Part shown: piece by piece, positions 7,077 through 48,267 of the stretch
How positions within the stretch are numbered: the first letter of the stretch is position 1
How the letters are laid out: each line of letters begins with the position of its first letter
Sequence record: MW269952.1
Origin: Escherichia phage P479
DNA: 64,000 bases
Strand: one strand, 5' to 3'
Translations under genes and position numbers: made by a program
Notes under the pieces: model-generated
What the model was told of the DNA's origin: nothing
Seen by the model: the letters and a program-made list of their open reading frames with translations, nothing else
Database searches by the model: none

Positions 7077-7112
7077 TGCTTTAATTTTATGGCTGTATAA
7101 TGGTTCTAGACC
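7077..7112 (+). promoter_or_regulatory. middle-type promoter (MotA box TGCTTTA, 11-nt spacer, TATAAT) with conserved GGTTCTAGACCC downstream module
   Basis: TGCTTTA 7077-7083, TATAAT 7095-7100, immediately upstream of uvsY; same module recurs at 13121, 22008 and inverted at 48229. Confidence 0.5.
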
Positions 7113-7129
7113 CTTACATTGGATACATT

Positions 7130-7564
7130 ATGAAAACAGAGATTGAATATAAGTTAGAAGTCTTTCAGGATGAGTTGGATGCAGATTTAAAAATTGATGG
7201 TACACAACTTCAATATGAAACACAAAACAACGTTTTGTTGCATAGCAAATGGTTGAGATTGTATACTAACTGCAAGAAAGAAATAATGCGTCTTGAGATT
7301 CAGAAGAAAACTGCACTGAAAAAACGACTAGACCATTATACAGGAAGGGGTGACCCAGGGGAAGAAGTATGCATGGATGTATACGAGAAGTCAGAATTGA
7401 AAACAGTCATGGCCGCAGATTCAAGCGTGTTGAAGATTGATACTTCAATTCAGTATTGGGCACTGCTCCAGGACTTCTGTAGCGCTGCATTAGATGGTGT
7501 TAAGTCACGAAGTTTCGCACTTAAACATATGTTAGAAATAAGACAATTTGAGGCGGGCAAGTAA
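7130..7564 (+). CDS. uvsY: recombination mediator UvsY
   Basis: Alignable along whole length to T4 UvsY (LQYE..NNV.L.SKWL, MRLEIQKK.ALK.RLD.Y.GRGD, IKHMLEIRQFEAGK); start taken at internal ATG 7130 downstream of the promoter -10. Confidence 0.9.
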   Translation: MKTEIEYKLEVFQDELDADLKIDGTQLQYETQNNVLLHSKWLRLYTNCKKEIMRLEIQKKTALKKRLDHYTGRGDPGEEVCMDVYEKSELKTVMAADSSVLKIDTSIQYWALLQDFCSAALDGVKSRSFALKHMLEIRQFEAGK

Positions 7565-7797
7565 TGCGATATTCTATCGACGATGCGTTTAACCAAGACG
7601 AAGAGTTCGAAGAAGAAATTAAGTATATGATGAAGGAATGGAAATTGAATCGTGCAGATATTCGTATCTGCGCTGACCACCCTTGTGGTGAAGATGTTAT
7701 CTATGTTAAAGGTAAATTTGCGGGATACATCGATGATGCGTTCTATTCTCACAATATGGGAATAGATACTGGTATGAGATACTTTAAGGAAAATTAA
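7564..7797 (+). CDS. small conserved protein, uvsY.-1-like
   Basis: 77-aa ORF with ATGA overlap to uvsY stop, position as in T4. Confidence 0.55.
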   Translation: MRYSIDDAFNQDEEFEEEIKYMMKEWKLNRADIRICADHPCGEDVIYVKGKFAGYIDDAFYSHNMGIDTGMRYFKEN

Positions 7798-7908
7798 ATG
7801 AAAAATATTAGTAAGATTCTCGACGAGATGGTTATCTCTGCAAACCGAATAACCGAAATTGTTAATGAGATGAAAGCTCGTGCTGCTATTATGAAGAACA
7901 CTAAATAG
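7798..7908 (+). CDS. hypothetical small protein (36 aa)
   Basis: Short ORF tightly packed between neighbours; not in ORF track (below length cutoff). Confidence 0.25.
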   Translation: MKNISKILDEMVISANRITEIVNEMKARAAIMKNTK

Positions 7909-7936
7909 ATATGTAAGTTTAACTGAGGAGACAATC

Positions 7937-8104
7937 ATGTCAGATAAGATTTGTGTTGTCTGTAAAACTCCAATCGATTCTGCATTGGTTGTGGATACAG
8001 ACCAAGGTCCGGTGCATCCGGGCGCCTGTTATAATTATGTTCAGAGTTTGCCAGTTACGGAAAATACAGAAGAGCAACTGAACGAGACCCAACTTTTAAT
8101 TTAG
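7937..8104 (+). CDS. small Cys-containing protein, uvsY.-2-like (possible zinc ribbon)
   Basis: 55-aa ORF MSDKICVVCKTPID...HPGACYNY with CxxC plus distal Cys; GAGGAG upstream. Confidence 0.45.
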   Translation: MSDKICVVCKTPIDSALVVDTDQGPVHPGACYNYVQSLPVTENTEEQLNETQLLI

Positions 8105-8161
8105 CTAGTGTTGTTAACCATTTTTGGTTTTGCCCCTTCCTTTTGGTTGGGGCCTTTTTAT

Positions 8162-8389
8162 TTAGAAATCTTCGTCTTCTTCGTCGTCCATATCCTCAAG
8201 CTCGGCGCGTTTACCGGCAAGAGCATCACGAACACTGATATCATCGGAATCTTTCAGTTCAGCTTCTTTGCTGCGTTTCTTATAATAGCCTTCCAACTCC
8301 TTCAGACCGTCCATGGTCTGACAGGAACCAATCTTAGCCATAAAGCCTTCAATTGATGCTTCGTACATAATTTCTTCGAAGGATTTCAT
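8162..8389 (-). CDS. uvsW.1: UvsW.1 small acidic protein
   Basis: 75 aa, acidic C-terminus, lies downstream of uvsW as in T4 but separated from it here by an endonuclease gene. Confidence 0.7.
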   Translation of the reverse strand: MKSFEEIMYEASIEGFMAKIGSCQTMDGLKELEGYYKKRSKEAELKDSDDISVRDALAGKRAELEDMDDEEDEDF

Positions 8390-45565: not shown

Positions 45566-45577
45566 AAAGCCTCCATT

Positions 45578-45585
45578 TATAAATA
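45578..45585 (+). promoter_or_regulatory. late promoter TATAAATA for gene 4
   Basis: Plus-strand TATAAATA 29 nt upstream of the gene 4 start. Confidence 0.4.
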
Positions 45586-45613
45586 AGTATATCAATATTT
45601 ATTAGGAGGCTAT

Positions 45614-46066
45614 ATGGCATACTCCGGGAAATGGCAACCTAAAAACGTTGCAAAGTACAAAGGAGACTGGAAGAAAATTACCTACAGGTCAAACTGGGAA
45701 AAATTTGTATTTAACTGGTTGGATAATCATCCAGATGTGGTGCAATGGGGGTCAGAGACCGTTATCATTCCATATTTTAGTAATGCGGATGGTAAAAAAC
45801 GCAGGTATTACATGGATATGTGGGTAAAATTTTCAAATGGTCAACAATTTTTCTTTGAGGTTAAACCCAAAAAGGAAACAAGACCTCCAGCAAAACCAGT
45901 TAATACGACCGCTGCGAGCAAGAAGAGATTTATGAACGAAATGTATGTTTGGGCTGTTAATTCGGATAAATGGAAAGCCGCTCAAGCTGTAGCTGATAAA
46001 ATGGGCATCCAATTTAGATTGATTACTGAAGATGCACTTAGGAAAATGGGTTATAAGGGTTTATAA
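45614..46066 (+). CDS. 4: head completion protein gp4
   Basis: 150 aa (same as T4 gp4); divergent from gene 53 as in T4. Confidence 0.85.
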   Translation: MAYSGKWQPKNVAKYKGDWKKITYRSNWEKFVFNWLDNHPDVVQWGSETVIIPYFSNADGKKRRYYMDMWVKFSNGQQFFFEVKPKKETRPPAKPVNTTAASKKRFMNEMYVWAVNSDKWKAAQAVADKMGIQFRLITEDALRKMGYKGL

Positions 46067-46713
46067 TGTATACGGTATATCAAATAACAAATAAAATTAA
46101 TAACAAAATTTACATCGGTGTGCACAAAACCGACAATATCGATGACAAGTATATGGGCACAGGGAAATTAATATTAAAAGCTCATAAAAAATATGGTATT
46201 GAAAATTTTCAAAAGGATATTTTATTTGTTTTTGATTCCATCAATGAATCAGAGAACGAAAATTTAGCCTTTGCTAAAGAGGCTGATTTAGTCGACCAAG
46301 AATTTGTTAATCGGCCCGACACGTACAACATTGATTTGGGTGGTAGAGGCGGTCGCGGCCGCTCCGCTTCTGTTAGAAAACGTATTGGTGATGCCCAGCG
46401 AGGAAAACCTGGTAAAAAACCATCAAAAGAATCTCGTTTAAAAATGAGTTTGGCACACAAGGGTAAAAAATTATCCGAAGAACATAAGATAAAAATTGGC
46501 AATGCTGGCCGTGGTAAAAAGCGTCCTGAAAGTGCAAATGAAGCGGTTAGACAACATTTATTAGGGGTTCCTCGTAAAGAAGAACATAAAAATAATATGA
46601 GAATTGGTTTTCTAAATACACCTACCAAAATATGTCCACACTGTGGATTAGAATGCAAACCAGCCCCATTTAAAAGATGGCATGGCGATAATTGCAAAGC
46701 GAGGAAAGGATGA
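46066..46713 (+). CDS. GIY-YIG homing endonuclease (seg-like), copy 2
   Basis: N-terminal [19 protein letters not shown] (GIY-YIG) paralogous to copy 1; NUMOD-like repeats; C-terminal CPHCG...C zinc finger; inserted between genes 4 and 2. Confidence 0.85.
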
Positions 46714-47537
46714 GTATTTTTACATTTATCAATGAATCTGCAGATAAACCAGGTCCGAAACCCAGTAAATCAGAACAACAATGGGTTGAAATAGGGGTTG
46801 AATTTTATACAGCAAAAGAAAAGGGAATGACCTCGAAGAAGTTTGCTGAAGAGAAAGGAATCAACTATTCGACCTTTACCAAAAGCATGTCAAGATATCA
46901 TTCGAGAATTCAGACTGCTTATAAAGTATCCAAGCTCAAAAAGAAACCTGCCGGTAAACTTACGAAGGCTGAACGTCAGCTGATAATGGTGAATAGCTTT
47001 AGAAAGAGCATAAGAGATAAGATTGCTAACGAAGGCGCTGCAAGCAACACCAAATCTGCCAGATGGTTCGCTGAGACAATTAAGAAATCAGTTCGTGGTC
47101 ACGTAACGGCTAAACCTCAACCGGGTAAGATTTATGCTTATATCTATGATGCAAAGCATAAGGATACTCTTCCGTACTGGGATAAATATCCGTTAATCAT
47201 TTATCTTGGGCTAGGTAAGCACAATTTGATGTATGGTTTGAACTTGCACTATATTCCACCGAAGGCACGTCAAGAGTTCCTTGAGGAACTTCTTAAGCAA
47301 TATGCTAATACTCCTACGATTACGAACAAGACTCATCTGAAGATTGATTGGTCAAAGGTGAAGGGATTTAAAGGGGCTGACCAGATGATTAAAGCATATA
47401 TACCTGGCAATATAAAAGGTACTATTACTGAAATCAAGCCCAGCGACTGGGCAAACGTTGTATTACTCCCCCTTCAGCAGTTTTTTTCAAAAGGCAAAAG
47501 ATTTTCTTCACAGAAAGTATGGAGAAATTCACTTTGA
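46710..47537 (+). CDS. 2: DNA end protector protein gp2
   Basis: About 275 aa from ATG 46710 (T4 gp2 274 aa), GAGGAAAGGA upstream; order 4-2-3. Confidence 0.8.
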
Positions 47538-48193
47538 ATTATCAGTTTATATATTCATCGTTAATTGAAAGGGCCCGTAACAGGGCCCTGATTTCATATA
47601 AAGAATCTCATCACATCATTCCGAAATGTATGGGCGGTTCAAATGCTCCGGATAACCTAGTCGATTTGACTCCCGAAGAACATTATGTAGCCCATCAACT
47701 ATTGGTTAAAATATATCCTACAAATCCAGGTTTAAGTTTTGCTGCCACATCTATGAGCCAGTCAAGCAAGTATTTGAAACGCAATAATAAATTATTTGGC
47801 TGGTTAAGACGCAGACACGCTGACAATATTTCTAAAAGCCAAACCGGTAAAGTTTACTTTAATAATGGTGTCAAATCGATAAAACTATTTCCATGGGAAG
47901 ATGTTCCGGATGGGTTTGTCAAAGGAAGACATTACAGTCCAACCAAGGGTACAAAACATTCTCGCAATAATGGACATTTTAAAAATAAAGAGATTCAGGA
48001 TGAATTGAGAAAGCGCCGGTGGGAAAAAGATAGGCAAGAAATGTGTAAAAACTTCGGAGTTGATACCATCGAGCAAGCTCGAGAGTTGGTCCTAGCATAT
48101 AAAAAGGAATTGCATCCTCGATACTGGGTAAAGCCAATGTTGGAACGTTATCCGTTTATGACTAAGCTAAGACTTAACACATTAATAAAATAA
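47519..48193 (+). CDS. HNH homing endonuclease (freestanding, mob-like), copy 2
   Basis: Motif [30 protein letters not shown] paralogous to the 8389-9174 HNH; inserted between genes 2 and 3. Confidence 0.85.
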
Positions 48194-48228
48194 TCTATTA
48201 TCGGTCAGTGTTATTGGTATGGACAAAA

Positions 48229-48267
48229 GGTCTAGAACCATTATAACACTGATTGTTTTAAAGCAAA
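48229..48267 (-). promoter_or_regulatory. middle-promoter-like module in inverted orientation (reads TTTGCTTTAA...TATAATGGTTCTAGACC on the minus strand)
   Basis: Reverse complement of the 7077/13121 module; points antisense into the HNH gene and gene 2. Confidence 0.35.

Follow-up and report, generated by a model that had tools for sequence, protein, structure and literature searches.

Why should a middle promoter of a T-even phage recur, almost letter for letter, at four places in one stretch of genome, and at two of them point backwards into late genes? The question is raised by a 64,000-nt stretch of Escherichia phage P479 (sequence record MW269952.1; the whole stretch is called the window below), in which a Mot box, a spacer of 12–13 nt, a TATAAT −10 hexamer and a conserved extension form a module upstream of uvsY (copy 1) and rnlB (copy 2), and again in antisense orientation between genes 18 and 19 (copy 3) and between genes 2 and 3 (copy 4). 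We consider it probable, if well short of certain, that the four are maintained copies of one old T-even subclass of MotA/AsiA-dependent middle promoters, here called the PuvsY class, in which the Mot box (GCTT core at about −30) is followed after 12–13 nt by, usually, TGn, then TATAAT and a conserved promoter-proximal block. The window is 95–97% identical to the SP18-like T-even coliphages (genus Gaprivervirus), SP18 itself being ~97% identical over positions 6000–14000, and the T4 strand equivalent to its plus strand is the counter-clockwise (early/middle) one. Gene context was assigned from open reading frames (ORFs) and synteny with the annotated genome of SP18, which also carries annotated motA and asiA and serves as a proxy for P479 in this respect, as the window does not span that region.

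Four copies of one module in the P479 window

Copies 1, 2 and 4 are identical over the 17 nt past the spacer and read TGCTTYA-N12/13-TATAATGGTTCTAGACC; copy 3 shares TATAATGGTTCTA and the 13-nt spacing, but its box is TGCTTTT and it ends in ...TCTACGG, continuing CGGTT (Table 1). The initial annotation, which had proposed a four-fold module, was thus right about the four sites, although its consensus TGCTT(T/C)A and its tail (G/C)(A/G)CC do not hold at copy 3. The recurrence is non-random: the exact 13-mer TATAATGGTTCTA occurs four times in the window versus 0.00 in 100 dinucleotide-preserving shuffles, always 12–13 nt past a GCTT box, and the looser pattern GCTT-N(13-17)-TATAATGNNYCYA was likewise observed four times versus 0.00 in shuffled sequence. 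TGCTTYA-N10-14-TATAAT was also found four times (0.05 expected); three of these matches are module copies, and the fourth, at 58150, is without the extension. Like the latter, the Mot-type candidates at 51716 and 52664 in the window are without the block.

The sequence features of middle promoters are present at the module. Set against the middle-mode consensus (a/t)(a/t)(a/t)TGCTT(t/c)A, centred near −30, the Mot boxes with their flanks read taaTGCTTTA (copy 1), tttTGCTTCA (copy 2) and gttTGCTTTA (copy 4), and the box of copy 3, ttaTGCTTTT, has an intact GCTT core with its last base off consensus; MotA is tolerant of such deviations (PMC2988021). Spacers of 12, 13, 13 and 13 nt, with TATAAT at four of four copies, lie within the 12 ± 1 bp spacing of middle promoters. 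Sigma-70 scans over both antisense regions reported no module, i.e. no canonical −35; the single overlapping match is on the opposite strand at copy 3, and the nearest match at copy 4 lies downstream of the module. At copies 1 and 2, direct reading rather than a sigma-70 scan places the Mot box at the −35 position, with a stop codon abutting it and no stem-loop.

Copy 1 lies between gene 25 and uvsY (ATG at 7130) and copy 2 lies 5′ of rnlB (ATG at 13241). Genes 19 and 18 both run on the minus strand, and copy 3, in the 200-nt spacer that separates them, is directed antisense into gene 18 from its 3′ end; the true start of gene 19 is 21874. Copy 4 is situated between a homing-endonuclease ORF (47519–48193) and gene 3 (start 48279), both of which are on the plus strand; it is directed antisense into the endonuclease gene and, beyond it, genes 2 and 4. 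The module was also sought elsewhere, as the initial annotation had suggested: the window yielded a degenerate half-copy in the rnlB leader (Table 1), and the whole SP18 genome added an inverted copy between srd and modA and an ortholog of T4 PnrdC.7. The GGGTCT of the half-copy TATAGTGGGTCTA could pair with the predicted 5′ AGACCC of the rnlB transcript; the resulting AGACCC/GGGUCU leader hairpin folds no better than shuffled sequence (z = −0.13). An Rfam search of the whole window returned nothing at the modules, its sole matches being two tRNA genes at 53068–53217 (+).

Table 1. Module copies and associated features in the P479 window
Feature	Position	Strand	Details
Copy 1	7077..7112	+	TGCTTTA 7077-7083, 12-nt spacer, TATAAT 7096-7101, GGTTCTAGACC 7102-7112; predicted +1 7108 (A)
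Copy 2	13121..13157	+	TGCTTCA 13121-13127, 13-nt spacer, TATAAT 13141-13146, GGTTCTAGACC 13147-13157; predicted +1 13153
Copy 3	22008..22043	+	TGCTTTT 22008-22014, 13-nt spacer, TATAAT 22028-22033, then GGTTCTACGGTT; GGTTCTACGG 22034-22043; predicted +1 22040
Copy 4	48265..48229	−	TGCTTTA 48265-48259, 13-nt spacer, TATAAT 48245-48240, GGTTCTAGACC 48239-48229; predicted +1 48233
Degenerate half-copy TATAGTGGGTCTA (−10 and block)	13190..13202	+	rnlB leader, 49 nt 3′ of copy 2; no Mot box before it
10-bp inverted repeat CCGTAGAACC (21993-22002) / GGTTCTACGG (22034-22043)	21993..22043		Encloses copy 3; hairpin in late-sense (minus-strand) RNA, z = −4.09
Late-sense RNA hairpin around copy 4 −10 and block	48202..48255	+	−25 kcal/mol, z = −5.35; U-rich run after it
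T4 late-promoter consensus TATAAATA	22014..22021	− (gene 19 strand)	Within the copy 3 spacer; direct reading
TAATCTATTATC, stop codon and conserved tail	48191..48202	+	Endonuclease insertion junction; related element after gene 18
658-bp insertion relative to SP18	47532..48189	+	Exactly at the gene 2 stop codon (blastn); carries endonuclease ORF 47519-48193

A subclass of T-even middle promoters

The 58 mapped middle promoters of T4 compiled in the Hinton review (PMC2988021) were aligned at their start sites. Across this set, positions −6 to +6 are highly variable and mostly unrelated. Two promoters carry the block, PuvsY (TGCTTCA-N13-TATAATGAATCT followed by AAGTCC; mapped start 115371) and PnrdC.7 (CGCTTTA-N12-TATAATGGTTCT followed by AAGCCC; mapped start 53325), and a partial block is seen in P34i (TATAATGGTCCC followed by AGAGAG), PnrdD and P55. 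In both PuvsY and PnrdC.7 the mapped start is the A of TCTA, which gives the predicted starts of the four window copies (Table 1). A scan of the whole T4 genome returned four full copies: 115383(−), corresponding to PuvsY and oriF; 53337(−), corresponding to PnrdC.7; 75988(+), inverted between genes 2 and 3 as is window copy 4; and 11885(+), inverted between srd and modA and pointing into modA. Both inverted copies (NC_000866, 75968-76006 and 11866-11903, +) combine a perfect Mot box with TGn, TATAAT and the block in its T4 form, and both are absent from the 58 middle promoters identified in the 2010 list (PMC2988021). The GenBank and RefSeq records of T4 annotate no promoter features.

The whole genome of SP18 contains inverted copies at srd/modA and 2/3 (73490, +), an antisense copy at 18/19 (99617, −), copies at rnlB (108503, −) and uvsY, and the PnrdC.7 ortholog. 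Copy 1 is identical in SP18 and in SP18-like contigs, and JS98-like phages carry TATAATGGGTCTAGGTCC 5′ of rnlB. By sequence comparison, the module is therefore a small subclass of MotA-type middle promoters rather than the general middle promoter, as most of the 58 T4 promoters fall outside it. The initial annotation had taken copies 1 and 2 for ordinary MotA-dependent middle promoters, and this assignment is supported by all of their sequence features, by the rnlB promoter of the JS98-like phages, which is alike, and by copy 1 being the positional ortholog of T4 PuvsY (oriF). The latter pair shares the position between gene 25 and uvsY and the layout of TGCTTYA, 12–13 nt, TATAAT, G..TCT and A(+1); they differ in the block itself (GAATCTAAGTCC in T4 versus GGTTCTAGACC in the window), and origin activity is known for T4 alone. 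The kind of promoter is a known one, with known T4 counterparts, orthologous or analogous, for copies 1 and 2. These copies would provide middle-period transcription of uvsY and rnlB, two genes that lie behind late genes and are thus out of reach of early read-through.

Conservation of the inverted and antisense copies

Loci were gathered from IMG/VR by pattern and by homology to gp3, Srd, gp19 and UvsY; a single-protein UvsY locus search reached close relatives only, and alignments were used thereafter. SP18-like, JS98-like and T4-like phages all have the inverted 2/3 promoter, as do four further lineages (L116, L117, L123 and L124), at least seven in all; its absence is limited to one divergent lineage and to genomes in which no spacer separates genes 2 and 3. 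When nine 2/3 spacers were aligned with MAFFT, the invariant columns comprised only the Mot-box GCT with an A, TATAATGG and one C of the block, at a mean column identity of 51%. At srd/modA, the inverted promoter was found in at least five lineages (the T4-like, SP18-like and JS98-like phages and two more), in every case back-to-back with the early promoter of srd. The antisense 18/19 promoter is found in three lineages, namely the SP18-like phages, the JS98-like phages (acGCTGTAA-N13-TATAATGGTTTTAGGTTC) and L167/168/173 (TTGCTAAA...TATAATGACTTCAGGTCT), and is absent in T4 and many others. In four other T-even contigs, an inserted gene unrelated to the window endonucleases replaces the module in the 18/19 spacer, which is evidently an insertion hot spot.

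Position and orientation have thus been kept while only the promoter elements are invariant, which points to purifying selection on the promoter. The alternative offered by the initial annotation, that the two antisense copies are recombinational relics, is refuted by the 2/3 copy being held in the same orientation in at least seven lineages and the 18/19 copy in three. From this pattern of conservation, the backward-pointing copies are probably working promoters rather than debris.

Anatomy of the two antisense sites

Both antisense copies are enclosed by inverted repeats that would form strong hairpins in late-sense RNA (Table 1). The spacer of copy 3 additionally contains, on the strand of gene 19, the T4 late-promoter consensus, such that a late promoter of gene 19 and the middle promoter of copy 3 would stand back-to-back; a second TATAAATA occurs near 21927, just 5′ of the ATG of the long ORF. 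At about +45 of both predicted antisense transcripts lies GATAATAGATTA, which is complementary to the stop codon of the upstream late gene together with TCTATTATC. No convincing terminator was found by a scan 3′ of the antisense starts, and short, defined small RNAs are accordingly unsupported. A coding role of the 2/3 antisense transcript was rejected, as it holds only ORFs of 14–16 codons without a ribosome-binding site. A 338-aa ORF antisense in gene 18 (22402..23418, +) was likewise set aside; it is 255 aa long in SP18 and absent in T4, and is probably due to chance.

The late-sense hairpins raise the possibility that the selected feature is an element of the late polycistronic messenger, in which the hairpin and the TAATCTATTATC tail would serve processing, stability or attenuation from one cistron to the next, and the likeness to a promoter would be secondary. 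The strength of the hairpins (z = −4.1 and −5.4), the position of the element after the stop codon of the upstream late gene, and the different stems found at the same 2/3 place in other lineages, which look like structure kept while sequence changes, are in keeping with such a role. However, invariance is seen in GCT, TATAATGG and the block but not in the stems; the hairpins of T4 and of L116/L117 lie elsewhere; and, judged from the rnlB leader fold and from direct reading, no hairpin accompanies the block at uvsY, rnlB and nrdC.7. We regard a late-messenger element as highly improbable.

The gene adjoining copy 4 encodes a free-standing homing endonuclease of 224 aa (ORF 47519-48193). Its earlier label of 'HNH gene' is roughly right, in that it matches the homing-endonuclease family phrog_655 (4e-56) and, weakly, HNH phrogs, but it has no Pfam hit. 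A homolog of 62% identity occupies the same site in a JS98-like contig, which suggests that this endonuclease family homes to the junction of the gene 2 stop codon and TAATCTATTATC. The possibility that the endonuclease gene brought the module with it was rejected, since the 658-bp insertion ends before the module. Genes 4 and 2 are separated by another stretch that SP18 lacks (46009-46702), an insertion with an ORF (46066..46713, +) for a 215-aa GIY-YIG/NUMOD3 seg-like homing endonuclease.

These insertions bear on a further explanation, in which the module is a mobile regulatory cassette copied by recombination, partly with endonuclease traffic, and the inverted copies are functionless by-products. 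Composite stem-loop/promoter cassettes, namely PeSL (promoter-early stem-loop) and the Mot-box-bearing PmSL (promoter-middle stem-loop), are known in T4-like phages and are linked to insertions and deletions (PMC4122927). The P479 module resembles these PeSL/PmSL elements (Arbiol 2010, PMC2839356; Comeau 2014, PMC4122927) in being a short, dispersed, near-identical promoter motif associated with stem-loops and indel hot spots. Paralogs also share lineage-specific states (AGACC at three loci in SP18-like and AAGTCC at three to four in T4-like phages), the 2/3 and 18/19 copies share the second element TAATCTATTATC, and both antisense sites are insertion hot spots, with the endonuclease beside copy 4 and in a JS98-like phage and unrelated insertions at 18/19. 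In PeSL/PmSL elements the stem-loop lies upstream of the promoter on the same strand and the cassettes flank variable ORFs in hyperplastic regions, whereas two of the P479 copies have no stem-loop, two lie within a loop on the opposite strand, and all are at conserved core positions. A same-strand stem-loop directly upstream was found at none of the copies, the hairpins of copies 3 and 4 forming in the opposite-strand RNA around the promoter instead of preceding it. The neighbourhood of indels gave a mixed picture, with an endonuclease insertion beside copy 4 and insertions at 18/19 in other genomes, but stable core positions at uvsY and rnlB. The endonuclease insertion is without the module, the spacer between Mot box and −10 has not been homogenised, so that conversion tracts would be ~20 bp with fixed ends, and the conservation of position and orientation across genera, with only promoter elements invariant, indicates selection rather than passive copying. 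A mobile cassette is therefore unlikely.

The promoter-proximal block

The initial annotation had remarked that the extension beyond the −10 is longer than promoter function requires. A profile was built from 28 non-redundant copies at six syntenic loci in about ten lineages, and its information spans −15 to +8, reading T-G-G, TATAAT and G-G-n-T-C-T-A(+1)-G-G-T-C-Y-T-T, with none in the spacer from −25 to −16. By this comparison, the extension is not peculiar to the P479 genome but is an old block, from about −15 to +8, common to the promoter subclass across genera. The cross-genus form is GGnTCT-A(+1)-GGTCYTT and that of the P479 lineage is GGTTCT-A-GACC, such that the window sequence GGTTCTAGACC is, in the alignment, a derived form of GGnTCTAGGTCC. 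T4-like phages have TCTAAGTCC (AAGTCC) at three to four loci and SP18-like phages have TCTAGACC (AGACC) at three, and these shared derived states imply that paralogs have been homogenised to some extent; long conversion tracts of the ordinary kind are hard to square with the spacer, which is not homogenised. JS98-like genomes are more varied, with GGGTCTAGGTCC twice and also GGTCCTAGGTCT, GGTCCTATGGTT, GGTTTTAGGTTC and GAATCAAGGACT. This lineage variation fits a selected promoter-proximal element with occasional homogenisation, and the identity of copies 1, 2 and 4 over 17 nt would then be a lineage-specific homogenisation laid over an older, looser consensus.

Several specific roles for the block were considered and rejected. 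A palindromic operator with a TCTAGA core is out, since the near-palindrome GGTTCTAGACC is confined to the SP18 lineage; a second, inverted Mot box within the block fails because CTAAGC/CTAAGT read backwards fits T4 alone; and a start favouring an NAD cap is at odds with C at −2 and T at −1, which are off the HRRASWW consensus. More generally, the −6 to +8 block could be bound by a factor of phage or host origin that places uvsY, rnlB, nrdC.7 and the antisense transcripts under common control; the block variants would then have co-evolved with this reader. Conservation beyond the needs of a canonical promoter, the lineage-specific variants in T4-like and SP18-like phages, and the small, dispersed set of promoters that bear the block would all suit such a regulon. 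Against this, copies differ within single JS98-like genomes, a diversity that argues against a strict sequence-specific reader, the near-palindrome is restricted as described above, and no candidate protein emerged. A G at −6 and a YCYA start are likewise found in the early promoters of this clade, so part of the block is a general start context. We judge a dedicated operator to be very unlikely.

The early promoters of SP18 provide a useful comparison. Those at 6933, 59198 and 166774 (NC_014595, −) read GTGTACA-N17/18-TATAATG[AT]nCC[CT]A and have an inverted repeat around the −10 (e.g. GGGGTCagagTATAATGACCCC), a similar one occurring in T4 5′ of motB. They thus resemble the module in their conservation past the −10, with G at −6, CC[CT]A at the start and A at +1, which suggests that part of the block reflects a general strong-start context in these phages; they differ in that they have a −35 (GTGTACA or GTTTAC) instead of a Mot box, in the inverted repeat that flanks the −10, and at positions −5 to −3 and +2 to +8. 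Favourable contacts of Escherichia coli RNA polymerase with promoter DNA include TG at −15/−14, GG at −6/−5 (sigma region 1.2), and T at −4 and G at +2 (core recognition element), and a pyrimidine–purine start 7 nt past the −10 is also favourable. By analogy with such general E. coli promoter knowledge, the extension would belong to the promoter proper, as discriminator, start-site context, first transcribed bases and RNA polymerase contacts, and would not constitute a separate element.

A possible link to replication origins

Two MotA promoters of T4 have a second role: PuvsY serves oriF, and P34i, a MotA promoter lying antisense in late gene 34, serves oriG, both via persistent R-loops (PMC3016281). 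The module copies might similarly be origin-type promoters whose transcripts stay as R-loops and prime leading-strand synthesis, in which case the 2/3 and 18/19 copies would be origins and not regulators, and the block would tend to make the open complex or RNA–DNA hybrid at the start very stable. This possibility, which the initial annotation did not raise and which is compatible with the maintained promoter subclass that we favour, carries a small but appreciable chance. Copy 1 matches the promoter of oriF as its positional ortholog, P34i shows that a MotA promoter can lie antisense in a late gene, and the oriG promoter has a related block (GTATAATGGTCCC followed by AGAGAG). Both known R-loop origin promoters fall in a subclass that takes in only about 4 of the 58 middle promoters mapped in T4, an association noted post hoc. 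The comparison with P34i has its limits, in that P34i lies within coding sequence, whereas the antisense window copies lie in intergenic spacers and are enclosed by inverted repeats; the likeness extends to a middle promoter facing a late gene, the related −10 and block (GTATAATGGTCCC followed by AGAG) and conservation in SP18. There, the oriG promoter is nearly unchanged while the surrounding gene 34 is 81% identical; P34i is kept almost base for base at 152169 (−) of NC_014595, and a second antisense tggTATAATGGCCCTAATCC occurs in SP18 gene 34 at ~153,640 (−), about 1.5 kb from P34i.

The positions of T4 origins offer a looser correspondence. The marks of oriF, oriE and oriA lie 0.06, 3.4 and 4.9 kb from the copies at 115.4, 76.0 and 11.9 kb, and oriC, near rI.-1 (PMC3016281), is about 5.5 kb from the copy at 53.3 kb. 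However, the distances for oriA, oriC and oriE amount to kilobases, and the match was noticed after the fact. T4 origins, moreover, share no local motif; oriE has no middle promoter close by and makes use of an early one, and oriC may require late transcription (PMC3016281). No known origin lies near rnlB or nrdC.7. The promoter component of a minimal origin (MotA-type, in an origin of ~100 bp) is represented at the module copies by its sequence features. Origins of this type also have an A+T-rich DNA unwinding element directly 3′ of the promoter. Downstream A+T content (+7 to +66) is 0.67–0.73 at the window copies versus a window mean of 0.59, which is ordinary for intergenic DNA; when ranked among the 58 T4 promoters, the T4 module copies fell between 1st and 19th and P34i was 43rd, and this test of A+T content and duplex stability did not discriminate. 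A bolder proposal is that the extended module defines origin-type middle promoters as a class of dispersed R-loop starts, including oriF, resembling oriG, and adding hitherto unrecognised promoters, clockwise or antisense, at 2/3, srd/modA and, in some genera, 18/19; we give it a slim chance. That the −6 to +8 block is what determines the persistence of the open complex or hybrid for priming is, to the same slight degree, conceivable.

Discussion

On balance, a single promoter subclass best describes the four P479 modules. Copies 3 and 4 would be maintained promoters firing in the middle period against the late operons of gene 18 and genes 4-2-3, yielding transcripts antisense to late genes. 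Such RNA may interfere with read-through or premature late-sense transcripts, or may prime replication as at ori(34). The activity of these promoters and their dependence on MotA are predictions, as are the role of the block and the effects of the antisense RNA.

Several observations weigh against this interpretation. The inverted copies of T4 are not among the 58 identified promoters, which leaves activity in the inverted orientation a prediction even in T4. The box of copy 3, TGCTTTT, is non-consensus, with a late-promoter consensus on the other strand, such that its similarity could partly serve gene 19. Both antisense copies lie inside strong late-sense hairpins, which are possibly the selected feature there, and RNA polymerase contacts leave +3 to +8 of the block unexplained.

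The 'anti-late' RNA of T4, biochemically defined in the hybridisation work of the 1970s, consists of transcripts made before replication that are complementary to late messages. RNA from copies 3 and 4 would be of just this kind; the difference is that the list of identified T4 middle promoters includes none at 2/3, 18/19 or srd/modA. Antisense transcription of gene 32 has been reported (Belin 1987, as cited in PMC2988021), and a T4 differential RNA sequencing (dRNA-seq) data set with samples at 4, 10 and 20 min includes 150 T4 transcription start sites, 22 of them antisense (bioRxiv 10.1101/2024.04.04.588121). Neither the −15 to +8 subclass nor the conserved inverted copies at 2/3, 18/19 and srd/modA are described in PMC2988021, PMC3016281, PMC1524935 or PMC4122927; an earlier mention elsewhere is possible.

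Both sigma appropriation and R-loop-primed replication have T4 as their reference system, and the canonical T4 middle promoter is described as a Mot box and a −10 only. If the subclass is real, the −15 to +8 block, which is part of the oriF promoter and is resembled by that of oriG, would be a candidate determinant of promoter strength, start choice or hybrid persistence. If middle promoters directed against late operons, and even against the early modA-modB region, are conserved across genera, T4 would have at least two promoters that are not on its list, and antisense middle transcription would be a selected part of the T-even programme.

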